Positions 33,575-42,668 of a DNA stretch of 64,000 nt are shown here, in pieces. Every line of letters starts with the position of its first letter. Positions within the stretch are counted from its first letter, which is position 1. The translations under genes and the position numbers were made by a program. Origin of the DNA: Fibrobacteria bacterium (GTDB taxonomy: Bacteria > Fibrobacterota > Fibrobacteria > UBA11236); NCBI GenBank assembly GCA_043732185.1, contig JAYTHY010000074.1:96001-160000 (forward strand), in the 5' to 3' direction. The notes beneath the pieces were generated by a model. That model was given only the letters and a program-made list of their open reading frames with translations. It did not search any database and was not told the DNA's origin.

Positions 33575-35650
33575 TCAGAGACCCCAGAAGAGTTTGAGCA
33601 TGGGAGCAATGACCACCGACATGACGCCCATCAGTTTAATCAAAATATTCAAAGAAGGCCCGGCCGTGTCCTTGAACGGATCGCCGACCGTATCCCCCAC
33701 TACCGCGGCCTTGTGGGCATCCGAGCCCTTACCCCCGCTGACACCGCTTTCGATGGTCTTCTTAGCGTTGTCCCAGGCACCGCCGGTATTGCTCATGAAT
33801 ATAGCTAATGCCACTCCCGATGCCGTGACACCGGTCAGGAACCCCATCAGCATTTCTATGCCCCCCAAAAACCCAACGGCAACGGGCGATAGAATCGCCA
33901 AAAGCCCTGGCAGCACCATTTCCTTAAGGGCCGCAGTGGTACTAATATCGATGCACTTGGCATAGTCCGGTTCCGCTTTGTCTTGGAGCAGGCCGGGAAT
34001 GGTACGGAACTGCCGTCGCACTTCTTCGACCATGGCCATGGCCGCGCGCCCTACCGCCATCATGCACATAGAGGAGAAAAGGTAGGGAATCATGCCACCG
34101 AGCAAAAGCCCCACCAGCACTTTTGGATTTGTGATCTCGATAACATCTATTCCAACTTCGGTTTTAAAGGCCGAGAAAAGCACAATGGACGTCAGTGCTG
34201 CCGAACCAATCGCGAACCCTTTGCCGATTGCAGCCGTGGTATTTCCCACCGCATCGAGCTTATCGGTAGTGGCACGCACCGAGGGCGGCATTTCCGACAT
34301 TTCCGCCAGACCACCGGCATTATCTGCCACTGGGCCAAATGCGTCTACGGCTAGCTGGATGCCCAAAGTCAATTGCAATCCCACGGTGGCGATGGCTACG
34401 CCGAACAGACCAGCGAGATTGTAACTGAGCAGAATCGCCGCGCCCATGACCACGACTGGAAGGGCCGTGGATACCATGCCTACACCCATGCCAGTAATGA
34501 TGGTGGTGGCCGGGCCCGTGTCGCACGCTTTGACAATGGCGTTGACGGGCACTTTATTGGTTGCGGTAAAGTATTCGGTAAGCATGCCGATCAGCGTACC
34601 CGCACCGATTCCAACCACTGTGCAAAGGAAGAGTTGGAGGGCACCAGAGCCGCCATTAAAGGTTTGGCCTCCAAGGCAACCATAAAAAATCGGATAGCTG
34701 AAAAGGGCGGCGAGGATGGATGCTATATGCGAACCTTTATTCAAAGCGCCTTGCGGCGATCCGCCTTCCTTAACCCTTACGAATTGGATTCCGATGGCCG
34801 AGGCGACTGCGCCGGCCGCAGCCAAAACCAGCGGCAGCAAAGCAAGTCGGATTTTAAGAATGTCACTGGCTTCCGCAGCCAAGCCAAGAATCATACAGCC
34901 CAGCACGGAGGCAACAAAGGATTCGTAGAGATCGGCGCCCATGCCCGCAACGTCACCGACGTTGTCGCCCACATTATCGGCGATGGTGGCGGGATTACGA
35001 GGATCATCTTCCGGAATTCCAGCTTCCACTTTACCGACTAGATCCGCGCCCACATCGGCCGCTTTGGTATAGATGCCGCCGCCCACGCGGGCAAAGAGCG
35101 CAATACACGAAGCGCCTAAGGCAAAGCCGGATAGAATTGGAAGAATTTGATGCTGAAAGTTTACCGGGTCCCGGCCAAAGCAAAGAATTGTGACGATCAT
35201 GATCACGGTGATGCCGCCCAAAGCCAAACCGACAACACTCATCCCCATGACAGACCCGGCCGCAAAAGAAACGCAGAGAGCTTCATTTAAGGATTTACTG
35301 GCAGCGGTCGTTGTGCGCATATTGGCCTGAGTGGCGATGCGCATACCAAAGAATCCGGAAGAAGCCGAGCAAATGGCCCCAATACCGAAGGTGACGGCTT
35401 CCCACCGCAAAATCCCTTTATTGCCCAATAGAAGCAAAGTGGCGGCCACAAGGACAAAGGGCACCAAAACTTTGTATTCCCGGAAAAGAAAGGCCATGGC
35501 CCCTTCCGCCACGTAACCGCCAATCTTCCTTAGCTTATCGCTACCAATCTCCTGCTTCATGATCCATTTCGACTTGAAAAATGCGAAAACAATGGCGAAA
35601 ATGCTTCCTAGCAACCCTATGGCTAAGGGCAATTGTATGTCGAGATCCAT
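33575..35650 (-). CDS. hppA: Membrane-bound ion-translocating pyrophosphatase, K+-dependent type (Na+- or H+-pumping)
   Basis: [40 protein letters not shown] (Ala at the K+-dependence position), [10 protein letters not shown]. Confidence 0.95.
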
Positions 35651-35869
35651 TATGCCTTTCCGGTAAAAAACCTTTTGAGCAGTAAATATAGCCGCGCCTG
35701 GGGCGCTACTTTAGATTTTTTATGATCTTAGTTTTTTTCTGCATTTCCAAACAAGGTCCTTTTGATTTATCTCATCGGATTCGCCAACATTGCATGCTCA
35801 ATATGGGATAGGGTGCAAGGATTTTTGGAAAAATTGGCTTTTTAAGGTTGACAATGAGGTTATACTAAG

Positions 35870-36418
35870 ATGCTTATGCGATTTAGGGCGAAATGGGTTG
35901 GAATATTGTTTTTGGAATGGGTGCAATGTGCATCTGCAGCAACCCTGCCCAATGCAAATCCTGCACAATTGACGGACGTGCCCCGGGCTCAGTATGAATT
36001 TAGTCCGGCAGCGGGCCTAATGGGTGGGAGTGCGCTAATCGGAATGCGGATTTCCATGAATTATCATCCCGTTAATCTTGAACTAGCCACCGATCAGGTC
36101 ATGGGTCGCACTGCAACCTTGTATCCCGTGACCTTGAACGCGGTTTTAGACTTGGCCGACTCTAAGAAAACCGTGCCCTATGGCATTATCGGCGGTGGCC
36201 TTTTCCTAACTGTACCGATTAATTCCGTTGGCGACCAGACCGTATCTTCTATTGGGGTCAATTTTGGAGGAGGCATTCGGTATTACATCAACTCGAGAAT
36301 TGGCATACGCTTCGAAACCAAACAGTTGTTCACGCGTATCGACAATCGGGCCGACCATCGGCAGGAACTCTTGATTTTTCAATCCTCCAGCCTGGGAGTT
36401 TTATTTGCTTTCGGTTAA
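35870..36418 (+). CDS. Predicted outer-membrane beta-barrel protein
   Basis: VPYGIIGGG, VNFGGGIRYY, IRFE strands; terminal FAFG. Confidence 0.7.
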   Translation: MLMRFRAKWVGILFLEWVQCASAATLPNANPAQLTDVPRAQYEFSPAAGLMGGSALIGMRISMNYHPVNLELATDQVMGRTATLYPVTLNAVLDLADSKKTVPYGIIGGGLFLTVPINSVGDQTVSSIGVNFGGGIRYYINSRIGIRFETKQLFTRIDNRADHRQELLIFQSSSLGVLFAFG

Positions 36419-37190
36419 TACCAAACCCAGAGTCCATTCAAAAGGCTGGCTGCGACCGTTTTTGGTTTGTGCTTGTCTTTTCGCCCTTTGCATCCTTACC
36501 GGTCACGCTGGAACCCGAAAAACAGCCCCAACCAAGGCGCCTGCCGAACACCAACTGGGCCGCGCTGCAGCGGAAACCGTCTATGTGCCGGTTAAAGCAC
36601 CTGCCCCGCTTTATCCCAGCGCCAATTCGGAATCATCAAAGGACGAGAACCGCCCAATACGCACTTCGATGTCTCAAGGCCCAGCGCGTGATTTTGACCA
36701 ATCCTATGGCCTATTCGCGGGGTTTTACAATGCGGAAGTTCTTGGCAGCAATCCTTACGCAAACCTATACTGGGACGTGTTCCCAAAAGACCAAGCCTTT
36801 TTCTTTGAATTCACTTCGGGCGTTGGAACTGTGCAATCTTCATTTTCGAAAAGCGTGGTCGGAGGTGGCGTGTTCCCCCATAGCTTTATGATTACAGCAG
36901 AAGCCCTGGGTGGGTACACGTACTCGGGCCTGGCGCATGGCACAGGCATAGCCGGGGGACTTTATCCCTATTTTACAGGCGGAATTACAGCGATCTACCA
37001 AGGAGGAGTGCCTAATATAGGGGGAGTCCTGGGATTTGGAAATCGTATGAATATTCCGTACGGACCCAAAAATGGCAGATGGGCATTGAACTATGGCGTG
37101 CGTGACCATATCTATTCCCAAAAAATCCGGAGTCAACCGTCCATGACCCAGAACTTTGTCGTATTGCTCGGAGTGCAGAAATACTATTAA
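36405..37190 (+). CDS. Predicted outer-membrane beta-barrel protein with N-terminal disordered linker
   Basis: YPYFTGG, VRDHIY, terminal GVQKYY; overlaps the upstream gene. Confidence 0.6.
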   Translation: MLSVNTKPRVHSKGWLRPFLVCACLFALCILTGHAGTRKTAPTKAPAEHQLGRAAAETVYVPVKAPAPLYPSANSESSKDENRPIRTSMSQGPARDFDQSYGLFAGFYNAEVLGSNPYANLYWDVFPKDQAFFFEFTSGVGTVQSSFSKSVVGGGVFPHSFMITAEALGGYTYSGLAHGTGIAGGLYPYFTGGITAIYQGGVPNIGGVLGFGNRMNIPYGPKNGRWALNYGVRDHIYSQKIRSQPSMTQNFVVLLGVQKYY

Positions 37191-37208
37191 AAGTTCACGA
37201 GGTACCCT

Positions 37209-39449
37209 ATGAATCCTACTCGATACCTAACGACATTTTGTGCCGCTGCCTTGCTAACCGCCTGTCTCGAACCCGCCGATCAAATCATGGAACGCTATGG
37301 TGAGGGCAAGCTCATTTTTGTTAAGGAGCCCAGTGTAGGCGGCACGAGTATGAACGACAACGTAGCCATGGCGAGCAATCCCAATGAATTTTATCCGGGT
37401 ACGGACATTATTCTCCTGTCACCGATTTCCCCAACCGGAAAACTCACCAATTTGACCGCGCAATGGACCCGTGCCGTCGAGAATCACAACGATTGGGGCG
37501 CCGCGTTGGATCCGGAAGTTTCTTTCGATGGCACCAGGATACTTTTTTCGATGCGCAAACCGAGCACTCAGACGTCGCTGAACCAGCATTGGGGTATTTA
37601 TGAAATGAATGTAGACGGAACGCATTTGGTCCAGTTGACCAGTCCGGAAATTGGGGACGATGTGGATCCAGCCTATATCGATGCAACCCATATCGTATTC
37701 GGATCCACGCGCAATCAAATCTTGGATGAATATGAACGTCGAGCTGTGCCCCAACTTTTTGTAGGCGAAATGGGTGGCGTAGGCGGAAACTTGGTGAACG
37801 TTCGCCAGATCACATTTAACCAAAGCCACGATCAAAATCCATTTGTCCATTCCAGTGGCAAGATATTTTTTACGCGCTGGGATCATTTAGGCGACCCAAA
37901 TAAAATGCCCTTGTTTACCGTAAATCCGGATGGCTCCGGTCAGTTTGTTCTCTATGGCGCTGACGAAACCTTCACTGGCTCGCAAACCAGCGGTTCACGC
38001 ACATTTTTGGAAGCGCGAGAACTGCATGACGGCGGACTAGTCGCTTCGCTGATGGACAGGGCTTCCCAGTTTGAAGGTGGCGCTATCAGCATCGTGGACC
38101 TCTCAAAATTTACCTCCGCTCCCGAGGTTCTCACCTCCAGTTCTAGCCCCTACAACACAACCCGAAACCCGTCCAATGCGCTGTTCAAAACACCCTATCC
38201 CATCATGGACGGAGGCCGGGAAAAAATATTAGTAGCGGAATCGGCCCATGAAGCTGGGAATGACGTCAAAAATGCATACGTAAATTACGATCTGTTCATA
38301 ATGGATAAGGATGGCGGAAATCTGAAACTCATACACGCCGATCCCTTAAACAATGATTACGACCCCATTGTAGTCGCGCCGCGCGCCTTTACCCCCAAGC
38401 CCTTTGCCATGAACCCGTTGATCGCGGATGCGTTCAAGAACGGCGTAACCACGGGAAAGTTTTTTGATGCAGACGTGTACAGCCGACAAGACAATGACGG
38501 CCATATGTCCGCCAAGGATCTCCTCAACGGTGGCACGGATAGGAGTAAGGGCTTGGCGAAATTTGTTCGCGTGATCGAAGCCGTGCCCATGTCCGCCCAA
38601 TACCGTTCCATGGAAGGCGTCGGCCGCACCGAATTCGAGAAACAACACGTAATTGGCTACGGAGATGTGCGTGCGGACGGCTCCCTCTCGTTGGAAGTGC
38701 CGGCGAATAAGGCCTTGCATTTGCAAACGCTTGATGAAAATGGGATGATGCTCGTCAACCAATTGCAATGGATCAATGTTATGCCTGGAGAAAAGCGCAT
38801 GTGTACGGGGTGCCATGGCGCAAGAGAAAAAGATCAAGACATCAACTATTTCAAAATCGTGAATGATTCCGTGGTCTTCAAGCCCTCAGCGGGAAATCTA
38901 CTCGCGGAAACCAAGAACTACCTCTCCGGCTTCTACAATGCCCAGAAAGTCACTGAACACCCATCCGCCCGAAAGGACACTCTGGATTTCATGAGCCTTT
39001 ACTACCCCGGCAAAACCGCTACTGTACAAGCTATCCTAAATCGCCGCTGCAACTCCTGTCACGCTGTGGCGACTGCTAAAGATTCCGGAGGCAGCCTGGT
39101 TCTCGAAAATGTCCCGGATACAGCCTTGAACAACCACAGTAACGCCAATGTTTACGCCACCCTAACCAACGACAATGGCTATACCACCGCCAAAGCCGGA
39201 ACCAAACTGCGTTACGCCACCCCGGACGGCGCTCGAGAAAGCCCGCTGGCGTGGGTTCTCCTGAATAAACAGTTGACCGATAAAAACGAAACCTTATATC
39301 GGCCTACCTCCTACAACCACAGCACCCTCTGGCAAAAGGATTCGACTGGACGCATAAACGCCTTTGCGAAAGAAAACGTCGACCTATTGTCCTTGATTGA
39401 ATGGATGGATATGGGAACGCAATTCAACAATTCCAATTACACAAAATAA
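37209..39449 (+). CDS. Lipoprotein with TolB/PD40-like beta-propeller, hydrazine-synthase-alpha-like middle domain and two c-type heme motifs
   Basis: Lipobox LTAC; DPEVSFDG.RILFSMR, DVDPAY, ITFNQSHDQNP, FTRWDH, NPDGS; DGS...EVPAN...LQTLDENG...PGEKRMCTGCH; second motif CNSCH; EWMDMG. Confidence 0.8.
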   Translation: MNPTRYLTTFCAAALLTACLEPADQIMERYGEGKLIFVKEPSVGGTSMNDNVAMASNPNEFYPGTDIILLSPISPTGKLTNLTAQWTRAVENHNDWGAALDPEVSFDGTRILFSMRKPSTQTSLNQHWGIYEMNVDGTHLVQLTSPEIGDDVDPAYIDATHIVFGSTRNQILDEYERRAVPQLFVGEMGGVGGNLVNVRQITFNQSHDQNPFVHSSGKIFFTRWDHLGDPNKMPLFTVNPDGSGQFVLYGADETFTGSQTSGSRTFLEARELHDGGLVASLMDRASQFEGGAISIVDLSKFTSAPEVLTSSSSPYNTTRNPSNALFKTPYPIMDGGREKILVAESAHEAGNDVKNAYVNYDLFIMDKDGGNLKLIHADPLNNDYDPIVVAPRAFTPKPFAMNPLIADAFKNGVTTGKFFDADVYSRQDNDGHMSAKDLLNGGTDRSKGLAKFVRVIEAVPMSAQYRSMEGVGRTEFEKQHVIGYGDVRADGSLSLEVPANKALHLQTLDENGMMLVNQLQWINVMPGEKRMCTGCHGAREKDQDINYFKIVNDSVVFKPSAGNLLAETKNYLSGFYNAQKVTEHPSARKDTLDFMSLYYPGKTATVQAILNRRCNSCHAVATAKDSGGSLVLENVPDTALNNHSNANVYATLTNDNGYTTAKAGTKLRYATPDGARESPLAWVLLNKQLTDKNETLYRPTSYNHSTLWQKDSTGRINAFAKENVDLLSLIEWMDMGTQFNNSNYTK

Positions 39450-39462
39450 CGCGTTCAAGGAT

Positions 39463-39987
39463 TTGATTCTGTTGCTTCGTCCGCATTTTTTAGCCTTCGG
39501 TTTGACTATGGCTTTAAGCTTAACATCAGCTCCAGTATGGGCAGGTTCTGGCCCTAAACCGGGATCGATGGCTCCGTCGTTCAGCCTTCCGGATCTCCTC
39601 AAAAACCGCGGAGACATGAGCCTACGCCAACTAGAAGGCAAAGTGGTCCTGGTCGATTTTTGGGCAAGCTGGTGCCCGCCCTGTAAAAAGTCGCTGCCGG
39701 AACTTGGCCAGATGCGCCTTCGAAATCCAGCACTGGTGATCGTGGCGATAAGCATTGATGAAAACCGCAGCAAGGCCGTGGATTTTCTAAAAAACTCCGA
39801 CACATCGCTCGTCTATCTGCACGATGCCAAACACGAGGCCGCGGAAAAATTCGACCTCGGCGGAATGCCCTCAGCGTTTCTCATCGACAAAAAGGGTATG
39901 CTGCGCAACCGGTTTGACGGGTATGGTTCCGGAGAATTAAAATCCATGGAAACCGAGGCCAGGAAATTACTGGAGGAGAAACCATGA
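39463..39987 (+). CDS. TlpA/ResA-family thiol-disulfide oxidoreductase
   Basis: GKVVLVDFWASWCPPC, GMPSAFLID. Start uncertain (39463-39508). Confidence 0.9.
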   Translation: MILLLRPHFLAFGLTMALSLTSAPVWAGSGPKPGSMAPSFSLPDLLKNRGDMSLRQLEGKVVLVDFWASWCPPCKKSLPELGQMRLRNPALVIVAISIDENRSKAVDFLKNSDTSLVYLHDAKHEAAEKFDLGGMPSAFLIDKKGMLRNRFDGYGSGELKSMETEARKLLEEKP

Positions 39988-40226
39988 AAAAAAAGCTTTG
40001 GTGGAGAAGTAGGGCTACAGTCCGGATTGCAATAGGTGCGGGGGCGCTGCTCTTGTCCGCCTGCGCAGCTGTTAAGCCCTATGAGCGGGAGAAATTGGCG
40101 GATCCCATAATGGAGCCAGGTGGCCAATTTTCCAAGCAAACCTTAGAGCAAAAATTTTTCTCCACGCGTGAAGGCAGCATCGGCGGACCAACCGGTATAG
40201 GTGGCGGGTGTGGATGTTCGAAATGA
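39984..40226 (+). CDS. DUF4266 family small lipoprotein
   Basis: LSAC lipobox, VKPYERE.LA, REGS.GG, terminal GGGCGC. Confidence 0.88.
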   Translation: MKKKLWWRSRATVRIAIGAGALLLSACAAVKPYEREKLADPIMEPGGQFSKQTLEQKFFSTREGSIGGPTGIGGGCGCSK

Positions 40227-41359
40227 TTCGATGGATCCGCAGCTCCTGTATGGTTTTTTTAGTTGTGATCCTAACGACCGCCATACTGTCGCAAGCCGAT
40301 CAGGTGGAATACACCACCTACTACTTTAAAGACAATCATGAAAATACCGTGGCCACATCTGCCTTCTCCTTGGCCAAAACCCTTTGGAAAAAAACCCAGA
40401 TCCTGTTGGATGTCGAGCTTGATCAAACCACCGTGCCACCTTCCATTGATGGGGTCAGCGGGGCTTCACGACCGCAGCGGCAAAGCAAGTCCGACTTCAT
40501 CAAGAATCGGGGGCAGATTATCGGCGGGCTGGAACAGGGTCTAGGCGACAACACCAAAGTTTCTGGCAGTTATTACTTCAGTCAAGAAGTGGACTACGCA
40601 TCGCAATCCGTTATTGGCAGCTTGACTCAAGAGTTTCTCCAGAAAAACCTTACCGTTACGCTACGAGGTCAATATACTTTGGACTCCGTTGGCGAGATTT
40701 TGGGCGACGGAGCCATGCTGAATCGATTTAAGGAAACGCATCAAGCTTCCTTAACCATTTCGCAATTGCTTTCACCGACCACCGTTCTGCGTATGGGCGC
40801 GGATGGCATGCGCAACCATGGAATTTTGAGCGACCCTTACAGGAAAGTCTTGCTCGACCAAACTGATAATGTTTTGAATAAGGATACCCTAATCGAACGT
40901 CACCCCAACATGCGCTACCGCCAAGCAGCCTGGGCCGAGATAAGCAAATTCATGCCAGGTATGGATGGCTCGTTCATCATTACATACCGCTACTACTGGG
41001 ATGATTGGAACTTAAAATCGAACACCCTATCACTCAAATTGAACAAATACATTACTCCCAACTGGATCCTTAGTCCAGAGTATCGCTATTACGTTCAGAC
41101 GGGCGTCAATTTCGGAGACTATGCCAAAAACCAGCCGAATATTTTTGATGCAGTTGACTATAAACTCAGAGCGTTCACCAGCCATACCGTGGGCATGGGG
41201 GCAACATGCTTTCTGCGTGCCTTCGGAAAAAATCATCCCGATTGGGATTTCCTAACCAACACATCCGTTTCGCTTTTGTATTTCCACTATTTCAATGATA
41301 CGGACGCCGACAATTTTACGGCCAACATCCTAGAAACGCGGATCAAGTTTGCCTTTTAA
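40223..41359 (+). CDS. DUF3570 family outer-membrane beta-barrel
   Basis: DGVSGAS, S.EVDY.S, G.LSDPYR, E.HP..R, YRYY.DDW, YRYY.Q, terminal KFAF; ATGA overlap with DUF4266. Confidence 0.85.
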   Translation: MIRWIRSSCMVFLVVILTTAILSQADQVEYTTYYFKDNHENTVATSAFSLAKTLWKKTQILLDVELDQTTVPPSIDGVSGASRPQRQSKSDFIKNRGQIIGGLEQGLGDNTKVSGSYYFSQEVDYASQSVIGSLTQEFLQKNLTVTLRGQYTLDSVGEILGDGAMLNRFKETHQASLTISQLLSPTTVLRMGADGMRNHGILSDPYRKVLLDQTDNVLNKDTLIERHPNMRYRQAAWAEISKFMPGMDGSFIITYRYYWDDWNLKSNTLSLKLNKYITPNWILSPEYRYYVQTGVNFGDYAKNQPNIFDAVDYKLRAFTSHTVGMGATCFLRAFGKNHPDWDFLTNTSVSLLYFHYFNDTDADNFTANILETRIKFAF

Positions 41360-41422
41360 CTGAGCGTCACATGCTACCTTTAAAGTGCGTGGGTTTTATT
41401 TTGACTCTATCCCACTAGCGCA

Positions 41423-41860
41423 TCAGCCAGGCACAGCTACGTGCAATTGTTTGAGAATCCCAGCAAACCCGCCATCCGCAACCGGTTGCATTTCCAGGAG
41501 GTGCAAGAGACCGCCGTGAAACTGTGCGGTAAAATTTTCCACCGGCAATTGAATGGACATTCCCGTGGCAGGCAGTCGGATGCCTAAGAGCAGAAGATCC
41601 AAGGTGTCTTTATGGGTGCCGGTAAAAGAAAAGTGGCCGGTAACTTTTCCATGGTTTTCTTCCAATACAACAAGATTGAAAGAAAAATCCGGAAAGGCGT
41701 GGCCCAATGCCTTGTGTAGCGTGAGCCATTCCTGCTTGCTAATCGGTTTGTGATCGGCGCCGAGGAATTGAAAATTGTCCTCCAGGCATTTTGCTGCCTT
41801 ATCAAAATTGTGGGATTGAATCGCCTTGATACATTCTTTGAGAATCTTCGCTGAAGCCAC
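41423..41860 (-). CDS. SnoaL-like ester cyclase / NTF2-fold protein
   Basis: AFPDF, FTGTH, PATG, LKQL; AAGGAG RBS before GTG. Confidence 0.8.
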   Translation of the reverse strand: MASAKILKECIKAIQSHNFDKAAKCLEDNFQFLGADHKPISKQEWLTLHKALGHAFPDFSFNLVVLEENHGKVTGHFSFTGTHKDTLDLLLLGIRLPATGMSIQLPVENFTAQFHGGLLHLLEMQPVADGGFAGILKQLHVAVPG

Positions 41861-42016
41861 TTTTCTCTCCTTTTAAAGGTTTAACTCAAATGATGAACCA
41901 AAAATCGGGGCAAAGAAAACGAGCCCATAGATAAAGTTTTCAATATTTAATGAACAGAAGCCTCCTTTAGTGCGTGGCGTTTTTCCGTTGATAACTTAGG
42001 GAAAACTTTTTTTGAA

Positions 42017-42376
42017 TTAATCCTCATTGTCGGACCAGTTGTTATTACGCGACTGCTTTTTTTTCGACTGCAAGGATTTTGCCTTCTTTTTGCTGCGTTT
42101 CGCGGACTTGGGAGGCTTTGTCACCTTGCGCACCAAGGGCACTATATTCAGTTTTACAACCTTTTCGCGCAGCTTTTCCAGGCAAATACATTTGTTTAAA
42201 AACTGGCTGCGCTCCTGTTGGCACATCACCACAATTCCTGTTGGTAGATGGCGTAGGCGCACGGCGCTATCGGTTTTATTTACGTGTTGGCCACCTTTGC
42301 CGCCCGAACGAAAAGTTTCCACTTCACATTCATCAAGCAGTTTTTCGTCCGATTCCGGCAGTAGAATCCGAGGCAT
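42017..42376 (-). CDS. Peptide chain release factor-like GGQ protein (ArfB-like ribosome rescue candidate)
   Basis: [27 protein letters not shown], basic C-terminal tail. Confidence 0.85.
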
Positions 42377-42428
42377 ACCTTAAAGAGAGGAATGTTAATG
42401 CCTCTTGGCAAAGAAAGAAATGAAACAA

Positions 42429-42444
42429 GCCCCCTCGAGGGGGC
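42429..42444 (-). terminator. Probable intrinsic terminator after the CDGSH gene
   Basis: Perfect palindrome gccccctcgagggggc followed by TTGTTT on the minus strand. Confidence 0.65.
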
Positions 42445-42464
42445 CGGAGGTCTTTGCGCGGGGC

Positions 42465-42668
42465 TTAGGGAGCGACTACCTCGGAGGCGAAACCCTGCTT
42501 GCTATGCGAACCATCGCAAAACGGTTTTTTAGAACTTAGGCCGCAGCGGCATAGAAAGGCAGCCTTTCCAGGTTCCAGAGTGAAGGGTTTGCCTGCGGAA
42601 TCATTGAGTGAAAAGTCCCCTTCAACTTTTAGGGGTCCATTTTTCAAGGGTGTCATTTGAGCCGACAT
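42465..42668 (-). CDS. CDGSH iron-sulfur domain protein
   Basis: NGPL.V.G, LCRCGLSSKKPFCDGSH; AAAGGA RBS before ATG 42668. Confidence 0.93.
   Translation of the reverse strand: MSAQMTPLKNGPLKVEGDFSLNDSAGKPFTLEPGKAAFLCRCGLSSKKPFCDGSHSKQGFASEVVAP

Follow-up and report, generated by a model that had tools for sequence, protein, structure and literature searches.

A conserved six-gene operon joins a hydrazine synthase alpha-like haem lipoprotein to a TlpA-DUF4266-DUF3570 cassette and may encode an outer-membrane redox relay

The operon and its conservation across phyla

We analysed a stretch of 64,000 nucleotides from a Fibrobacteria bacterium (GenBank assembly GCA_043732185.1, contig JAYTHY010000074.1, positions 96,001 to 160,000 of the forward strand; hereafter the window), in which a six-gene operon for envelope proteins lies at positions 35870-41359. 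At its centre stands a two-haem lipoprotein, here called HzsL, with similarity to the alpha subunit of hydrazine synthase (HzsA). It is preceded by two genes for small exported proteins and followed by genes for a TlpA-like thioredoxin, a DUF4266 lipoprotein and a DUF3570 outer-membrane barrel. The original prediction, made from the letters of the window, had described six same-strand genes in this region, and this was borne out: all six open reading frames (ORFs) are present and all six products are exported. The features of the locus are as follows (lengths in amino acids, aa).

35820..35866, + strand: promoter-like block directly before gene 1, with A/T tracts, TTGAC at 35848-35852 and TATACT at 35861-35866
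35870..36418, + strand: gene 1, small exported outer-membrane beta-barrel of the OMP_b-brl type, 182 aa (PF13505 at family level)
36405..37190, + strand: gene 2, small exported protein of an unnamed family, possible barrel, 261 aa (weak match to TIGR04565)
37209..39449, + strand: gene 3 (HzsL), lipoprotein of 746 aa: TolB-like propeller, HZS_alpha middle domain, C-terminal cytochrome c domain (Pfam, NCBIfam)
39397..39987, + strand: gene 4, TlpA/ResA-like periplasmic thioredoxin with WCPPC, 196 aa, or 174 aa from TTG 39463 (Redoxin)
39984..40226, + strand: gene 5, DUF4266 lipoprotein, 80 aa, mature form ~54 aa (PF14086)
40208..41359, + strand: gene 6, DUF3570 outer-membrane barrel, 383 aa (PF12094)

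The ORFs at 35870-41359 are all on the + strand. Genes 1 and 2 overlap by 14 nt, 18 nt separate genes 2 and 3, and the overlaps at the next three junctions are 53, 4 and 19 nt. The third junction becomes a 13-nt gap if TlpA starts at TTG 39463, and apart from this uncertain start, overlaps and gaps do not exceed 19 nt. Judged from the sequence, TTG 39463 is most likely the true start of gene 4 rather than 39397, because the resulting 174 aa fit the lengths of its orthologs (158-176 aa) and the overlap with gene 3 disappears. N-terminal export signals could be read in all six translations, with lipoboxes in gene 3 (LTAC) and gene 5 (LSAC) and a hydrophobic N-terminus ending in VWA-G in gene 4. 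When searched with profile hidden Markov models (HMMs), the HZS_alpha, DUF4266, DUF3570 and thioredoxin domains that had been named from the translations all scored above the Pfam cut-offs. Near-identical loci, at 97% protein identity, were found in other Fibrobacteria bacterium records.

To describe the gene order in other genomes we used a pattern scan with one genome per species, which gave 62 loci, and scored gene presence by phmmer with the window proteins. Loci were taken as assessable when they had at least 1.6 kb upstream (genes 1 and 2) or at least 2.3 kb downstream (DUF4266 and DUF3570). According to the record titles, the loci belong mostly to Fibrobacterota, Calditrichota, Ignavibacteriota and Bacteroidota, with a few other labels. 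Genes 1 and 2 were found upstream of HzsL in 49/49 assessable loci, and DUF4266 and DUF3570 downstream in 44/45. TlpA was located between HzsL and DUF4266 in 27 of the 44 operons. By these counts, the six-gene arrangement is far beyond chance. The original prediction had been staked on conserved synteny and conserved CxxCH motifs, and both are conserved.

Furthermore, in a quick maximum-likelihood tree of 69 DUF3570 barrels (two row pairs of which are identical duplicates), the 51 HzsL-linked barrels fell on one side of a branch with a value of 98 in the Shimodaira-Hasegawa-like approximate likelihood ratio test. This clade, as far as sequences can tell, indicates one old, partner-specific pairing. 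Two bins titled 'uncultured Bifidobacteriales' (L023 and L062) and one titled 'Deltaproteobacteria' (L026) also hold the complete operon; in the tree, these barrels fall among copies from Fibrobacterota or Bacteroidota, and the taxonomic labels look doubtful.

Outside Fibrobacterota the operon is extended at both ends. A third small OMP_b-brl barrel lies directly before gene 1 in 27 loci (for example L029:6590-7186), and a protein of ~800 aa is encoded directly after DUF3570 in 31 loci (for example L025:13692-16175 and L038:12599-15058). The latter carries NHL repeats, two FlgD-Ig domains and a type IX secretion C-terminal sorting domain, and this sorting tail points to a predicted partner at the cell surface. 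Elsewhere in the genome of the window, searches for the third barrel or the type IX-tailed NHL protein gave weak domain-level matches only and no clear ortholog.

HzsL and the redox sites of genes 4 to 6

HzsL matched HZS_alpha (PF18582) with an E value of 8e-20, above the cut-off. Among 8000 scored candidates, 690 homologues had E<=1e-5; the best 120 of these 690 were mostly ~730-800 aa long, with a few truncated forms, and all harboured PF18582. When the HzsL family profile was compared with the PDB, the sole match was 5c2v_A, hydrazine synthase alpha (E 2e-29), aligned in three stretches that cover the propeller plus residues 357-735 and reach the last helix. The AlphaFold2 model of HzsL (predicted local distance difference test, pLDDT, 88.4; predicted template modelling score, pTM, 0.88) gave the same chain as the top match in Foldseek, over the whole length, with E 1.4e-33 and template modelling (TM) scores of 0.65/0.63, followed by TolB, which matched the propeller alone. 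The three-domain architecture of HzsA, consisting of a propeller, a haem-binding middle and a C-terminal c-type haem domain, was found in HzsL by Pfam, profile and structure comparison alike.

Two haem-binding motifs had been noted in this protein, C532TGCH at the end of HZS_alpha and C614NSCH in the cytochrome c domain. Both are present, and their C and H are invariant in an alignment of 66 sequences. In the same alignment the lipobox Cys19 is nearly invariant (a lipobox Cys was found in 54/55 orthologs), as are, fully or nearly, three family-specific propeller motifs, D173EYERR, F203NQSHD and R223WxHLGxPN.

In HzsA the proximal ligand of haem alpha-I is Tyr591, four residues past the CxxCH histidine, as stated in the text of Hagglund 2025 (PMC12758564). 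This tyrosine has no counterpart in HzsL: in the HMM alignment the HzsA segment CSGCHYGSY pairs with CTGCHdsrD of the family, with E540 in the window and D in most relatives. The zinc-site Cys303 of HzsA (partner His587) falls outside the stretches that align with the HzsL family. In addition, the alignment stops at HzsA 769, and no family His was found in the few residues after it, where HzsA has His772, the distal ligand of haem alpha-II; the invariant H704 of HzsL could be a distal haem ligand.

Against the NCBIfam equivalog NF052339, HzsL scored 104.6 bits and did not reach the cut-off of 800. No genes for the beta (propeller) and gamma (CCP/MauG-like dihaem) subunits were found among the six genes or their neighbours. 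The window harbours no CCP/MauG-type (HzsC-like) gene, and the sole CCP_MauG match of the genome lies on contig C23. The statement that the window lacks ApbE and hzsC stands, the single ApbE of the genome being encoded on contig C87. A role of HzsL as a true hydrazine synthase was ruled out by the equivalog score, the Tyr591 position and the lack of nearby beta and gamma genes, and the sequence and the model rather suggest a whole-length homologue of hydrazine synthase alpha of a non-catalytic type. HzsA-like domains outside anammox bacteria had been said to be of no known function, in agreement with the text of Hagglund 2025 (PMC12758564), where the non-anammox alpha homologues adjoin beta-gamma homologues and no homologue has a known function.

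The three genes downstream of HzsL carry further conserved redox motifs. Gene 4 matched Redoxin (E 6e-20), AhpC-TSA and Thioredoxin_8, all above cut-offs, and stayed under the equivalog cut-offs for ResA (74 vs 170 bits), TlpA (62 vs 230 bits) and DsbE (60 vs 123 bits). It harbours the sequence WCPPC, and WCxPC is kept in 34/35 TlpA orthologs. Gene 5 matched DUF4266 (PF14086) with E 5e-16 and 59.7 bits at a cut-off of 27. It is the small lipoprotein with a CGC tail that the original prediction described, although its terminus is GGGCGCSK and not GGGCGC. In 44 DUF4266 sequences the lipobox Cys27 and G74, G75, C76, G77, C78 and K80 are invariant, and 49/51 ORFs end in GGCGC[AST]K, the remaining 2 being cut by contig ends.

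Gene 6 matched DUF3570 (PF12094) with E 3e-35 and 122.5 bits at a cut-off of 25. Its AlphaFold2 model (pLDDT 87.4, pTM 0.79) has 16 long strands, and Foldseek returned generic outer-membrane barrels alone (TM ~0.45). A flavinylation motif, S84-G-A-S87, is located in a conserved, low-confidence loop of 20 residues (77-96) that connects strands 3 and 4 and, in the modelled barrel, projects to the side where the other long loops lie. By the usual rule for outer-membrane barrels, this side would be the outer face or the lumen. At the aligned site, 49/49 HzsL-linked DUF3570 copies harbour [ST]GA[ST]RP, and a second flavinylation motif is absent from this subfamily.

For related barrels the flavin has been demonstrated. 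According to the text of Meheust 2021 (eLife 10:e66878, PMC8238504), ApbE flavinylates a Chlorobium DUF3570 protein at two [S/T]GA[S/T] sites. The same text describes 227 DsbD-containing and 316 further clusters of ApbE, DUF3570, a thioredoxin-like protein and DUF4266, in which the CxC tail of DUF4266 "may undergo redox cycling", DsbD is thought to send electrons outward and the function of the cluster is called uncertain. The claim that TlpA, DUF4266 and DUF3570 co-occur with ApbE agrees with this account. A flavin was missing from the scheme first proposed for the operon, in which TlpA reduces the CGC tail and passes electrons to the haem protein or matures it. The central cofactor is most likely a flavin attached by ApbE to DUF3570, giving a chain from thiol to flavin to haem rather than from thiol to haem.

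Sister modules, small upstream genes and the upstream region

The genome of the window contains three DUF3570 modules, each of them beside a c-haem lipoprotein, and only the module on contig C87 also encodes CcdA and ApbE. The two sister modules are the following.

C129:12596-15258: gene for a 217-aa lipoprotein (two CxxCH, one CX4CH), then DUF4266, DUF3570 and TlpA
C87:19310-26373: genes for a 270-aa lipoprotein (two CxxCH, one CX4CH), DUF4266, DUF3570, TlpA, CcdA (DsbD_TM), an Ig/Fn3 protein and ApbE

Beyond ApbE, contig C87 encodes a NusG_II-domain protein and then a membrane protein resembling heptaprenyl diphosphate synthase component I. The DUF4266 proteins of both sister modules end in GGGCGC. 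Since the only ApbE of the genome lies inside the sister DUF3570 cluster on C87, the window module must borrow its flavin transferase from there, and probably its membrane electron source too. A role of ApbE restricted to DUF3570 was ruled out for this genome, as two FMN_bind matches exist. A fourth small CxxCH/CX4CH cytochrome lipoprotein, related to the C129 copy with E 2e-40, is encoded near the end of contig C26 (1732-2388, - strand), and no DUF3570 was detected beside it.

We also compared the occurrence of ApbE and DUF3570 in 121 sampled Fibrobacterota genomes. ApbE was present in 15/15 DUF3570-positive genomes, compared to 55/106 of the others, kin genomes in these counts not being independent. 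In the family to which the window belongs, DUF3570 and ApbE occur together in 6 genomes and are both lacking in 3. All five other operon carriers that were checked (5/5) contain ApbE as well. Moreover, a same-strand CxxCH protein was found within 3.5 kb in 18 of 20 further Fibrobacterota DUF3570 loci. In 3 of these it is HzsL and in 15 a small CxxCH/CX4CH lipoprotein; among the 15, locus L095 is ambiguous and in L094 the haem-motif protein lies downstream.

The two genes upstream of HzsL had both been predicted to encode small beta-barrels. For gene 1 this is supported at the family level, as PF13505 matches 29/30 orthologs at E<=0.01 (best E 2.9e-11); the window's own copy gave E 4e-4 and 21 bits, under the cut-off of 28.7. 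For gene 2 a barrel is only weakly supported. None of 30 orthologs had a Pfam match, TIGR04565 matched weakly (E 0.0035), a C-terminal F/Y is found in 52/56 orthologs, and in a cluster of language-model look-alikes 31% of the members carry PF13505, which we take as a lead only. A paralogous relationship between the two genes was ruled out (BLASTP E 0.16, hhalign probability 2.6%).

Directly before gene 1, the window harbours GATTTTTGGAAAAATTGGCTTTTTAAGGTTGAC-N8-TATACT, followed 3 nt on by ATG, and its relatives harbour TTTTGGGAAAATGGCTTTTTTACGGTTGAC-N7/8-TATAAT. The block is nearly unchanged in 10/14 other Fibrobacterota loci compared, while the remaining spacer is divergent. In two loci (L061 and L024) just TTGAC-N8/9-TATAAT/TATTAT is retained, and the block is missing from L059 and L066. 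In the 4.46-Mb genome the strict block pattern occurs once, at gene 1. Only 7-8 nt separate TTGAC from the -10-like hexamer, and the leader would measure a few bases at most. The sequence suggests an operon-specific operator or an unusual promoter with a near-leaderless mRNA. As the hexamer is located 3 nt before 35870, the true start of gene 1 may be the second ATG at 35876.

A generic sigma-70 scan did not call the upstream block, with promoter and terminator counts at or below shuffled expectation, and the generic scan found no terminator after gene 6. Rfam gave no match at E<=0.1 in 35000-42500. The 13 sequencing runs on record are all of DNA, none of RNA. When 15 upstream regions were searched for consensus boxes of Fur, FNR/CRP, PerR, OxyR (half-site) and NsrR, scattered low-quality matches were obtained, none of them conserved. 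The divergent upstream gene (window 33575-35650, - strand) resembles a membrane-bound proton-translocating pyrophosphatase, as named from its translation alone. This neighbour recurs in 12 loci, probably as lineage synteny rather than for function.

A candidate thiol-flavin-haem relay and its alternatives

We propose that the six envelope proteins form a relay at the outer membrane that runs from thiol to flavin to haem and feeds HzsL, a proposal for which we judge the balance of right and wrong to be about even. We infer every transfer step, the direction of flow and the role of genes 1 and 2. Cytoplasmic reducing power would be carried over the inner membrane by the CcdA/DsbD-type protein of C87 and would reduce TlpA. 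TlpA would in turn reduce the vicinal CGC disulfide on the flexible DUF4266 tail, and this tail would reduce the flavin mononucleotide (FMN) that the genome's single ApbE is predicted to attach to the conserved DUF3570 loop. The flavin could then take up both electrons and hand them one at a time to the haems of HzsL, and HzsL might pass them to an envelope or external oxidant. The two small outer-membrane proteins encoded upstream may dock or hold HzsL.

A dithiol, a flavin and a haem in series make a chemically natural converter from two-electron to one-electron transfer. The relay is favoured because WCxPC, the CGC tail, the flavin site and the two haem sites are conserved together, and because the DUF3570 flavin is experimentally established for the family. 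Each of these redox motifs is under selection, and a purely structural barrel would not require a flavinylation site.

Several observations weigh against the relay. TlpA is missing in cis from 17/44 operons, and one locus (L014, 11196-13799) keeps genes 1-3 followed by unrelated genes, with no TlpA, DUF4266 or DUF3570. One further HzsL-linked barrel, L091 from the window's own family, has SSAS in place of the canonical motif. ApbE is common anyway, being present in 8/14 control genomes. Two of the 20 further DUF3570 loci, L097 and L098, show no haem-motif ORF beside DUF3570; L097 comes from the window's genus and is the counterpart of the C87 module. Four of the five other operon carriers have the HzsL-linked barrel only, and the fifth (G001) also holds a bare TlpA-ApbE-DUF4266-DUF3570 cassette without a haem protein. 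Conversely, HZS_alpha domains occur in 26/121 Fibrobacterota genomes, commonly without DUF3570, and Bacteroides thetaiotaomicron has HZS_alpha and lacks DUF3570. In three genomes (G048, G080 and G088) there are 32, 25 and 19 HZS_alpha matches, each with a single DUF3570. In addition, no export signal of the Bacteroidota type is seen right after the HzsL Cys, though the flavin loop would, by the usual barrel rule, lie on the long-loop (outer) side.

The HZS_alpha ORFs of G048, G080 and G088 are mostly frames of 850-1100 aa, several of them grouped on one contig (for example G048:C2 and G088:C36). These expansions are a different family of haem proteins.

A more specific version of the relay, which we regard as unlikely, is a flavin conduit through the barrel. 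Here the Gly-rich CGC tail of DUF4266 would enter the 16-strand DUF3570 barrel from the periplasm and reduce the FMN on the conserved loop, which would fold inwards from the outer side, and single electrons would go on to a surface haem enzyme. Such a conduit would be fuelled by thioredoxin and CcdA, not by the quinone pool, and would be widespread in the Fibrobacterota-Chlorobiota-Bacteroidota group. If true, it would be a thiol/flavin-driven functional counterpart of the porin-cytochrome (MtrAB-type) conduits.

Alternatively, the operon could serve maturation and docking, with TlpA and CcdA keeping the apocytochrome CxxCH reduced, as ResA and CcmG do, and with DUF4266 and DUF3570 inserting, anchoring or surface-exposing HzsL. 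The best NCBIfam matches of TlpA, namely ResA, TlpA and DsbE, are indeed cytochrome-maturation thioredoxins. A thioredoxin is encoded beside a c-haem lipoprotein in all three modules, the order TlpA-CcdA on C87 is that of System II, and the type IX-tailed last gene of other phyla makes a role in surface assembly conceivable. However, a scaffold needs neither a flavinylation motif nor a CGC tail, yet both are kept in essentially all linked copies, and the 17/44 operons without TlpA still keep DUF4266 and DUF3570. Moreover, the TlpA/DUF4266/DUF3570/ApbE cassette occurs without a cytochrome, both in G001 and in clusters described in the text of Meheust 2021 (PMC8238504), and elsewhere the genome has another three TlpA-like proteins as well as distinct genes for cytochrome c assembly. 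We hold maturation and docking to be decidedly unlikely.

More doubtful again is a function in metal handling, in which Fe(III) or Cu(II) would be reduced or chaperoned for uptake, with CGC as ligand or reductant, the barrel as channel and HzsL as reductase. A vicinal Cys-Gly-Cys on a flexible tail would make a plausible soft-metal site. In contrast, no conserved metal transporter, TonB receptor or siderophore gene lies beside the operon, whose other conserved neighbours are only the third small barrel and the NHL/FlgD-Ig protein with the secretion tail, and no Fur-like box at <=5 mismatches was found in the 15 upstream regions. In part, metal handling is a special case of the relay, as it follows the same path with a named substrate.

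Reverse flow, in which HzsL would oxidise an envelope or external reductant and send electrons via the flavin to disulfides, or in which an outer-membrane sulfhydryl oxidase would use the haems as a sink, is very improbable: although the sequence leaves the direction unfixed, the text of Meheust 2021 (PMC8238504) allows reversal in flavinylated systems in principle and the homologous haem alpha-II of hydrazine synthase, at the low potential of ~-330 mV given in Versantvoort 2025, would be a poor acceptor from a dithiol, the DsbD/CcdA family exports reducing equivalents, one member is encoded with ApbE in the sister cluster, and TlpA-type WCxPC thioredoxins are generally known as reductants in characterised systems.

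In published full texts we found no link between HzsA-like proteins and DUF3570, the large supplementary table of Meheust 2021 lying outside that search. The words 'hydrazine' and 'propeller' each occur 0 times in the main text of Meheust 2021 (PMC8238504), its small supplementary files contain no HZS_alpha, PF18582 or Fibrobacter, and a full-text search of the text of Hagglund 2025 (PMC12758564) gave no 'DUF3570'. New here are the hub-and-spoke layout, with two satellite modules around one ApbE/CcdA cluster, the barrel clade specific to its partner, the haem-partner count of 18/20, the secretion-tailed extra gene in other phyla and the operon-specific conserved upstream block.

Through this operon, the ApbE/DUF3570/DUF4266/thioredoxin clusters on the one hand and the non-anammox HzsA relatives on the other, both of them orphan systems, acquire partners that can be tested. 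The former are found in hundreds of genomes, with no terminal function assigned in the text of Meheust 2021 (PMC8238504). The operon joins both systems with near-perfect synteny over several phyla, and this suggests a flavin barrel that adapts two-electron thiol chemistry to one-electron haem chemistry at the outer membrane. Should the relay exist, cytoplasmic reducing power would be spent at or beyond the outer membrane without the respiratory chain, which would bear on how sediment bacteria resist oxidative stress, reduce metals and transfer electrons to the outside. The operon also bears on the origin of hydrazine synthase from ordinary periplasmic haem proteins.

Compared to the DsbD-type flavinylation clusters in the text of Meheust 2021 (PMC8238504), the window operon has the three families, their order and their common strand, the CxC tail and the [S/T]GA[S/T] site in common with them. 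It differs from these clusters in that ApbE and DsbD_TM are encoded elsewhere in the genome and not in the operon, and in that its DUF3570 subfamily has one flavinylation motif instead of two. Three of the five cluster components (3/5) are thus found in the window operon, with ApbE and DsbD_TM in trans on C87, where the full set is present. The window operon in turn adds the two-haem HzsA-like lipoprotein and the two small outer-membrane proteins. With the CcdA-ResA and DsbD-TlpA thiol pathways it has in common an exported WCxPC thioredoxin and, in the sister module, CcdA directly after TlpA. Unlike in those pathways, the window TlpA adjoins DUF4266 and DUF3570 and not ccs or ccm genes.

HzsL and HzsA of Kuenenia stuttgartiensis (5C2V) have the three-domain build and a whole-length match in common, and the TM score of 0.65 resembles the 0.66-0.67 given for published HzsA homologues in the text of Hagglund 2025 (PMC12758564). 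Unlike HzsA, HzsL is a lipoprotein and has its own invariant propeller motifs (DEYERR, FNQSHD and RWxHLGxPN), which are unmatched in HzsA. The published non-anammox clades I-IV are defined, in the text of the same paper, by a co-located beta-gamma homologue, whereas the HzsL family is without one.

The MtrCAB conduits resemble the proposed system only in the way they work, as an outer-membrane barrel is encoded with redox lipoproteins and electrons could be moved across or along the outer membrane. There is no homology between the two, and DUF3570 has 16 strands compared to 26. In place of a decahaem protein inside the barrel and quinol-linked cytochromes as donors, the operon described here would rely on a covalent flavin, predicted to be bound to a loop, and on a thiol donor.

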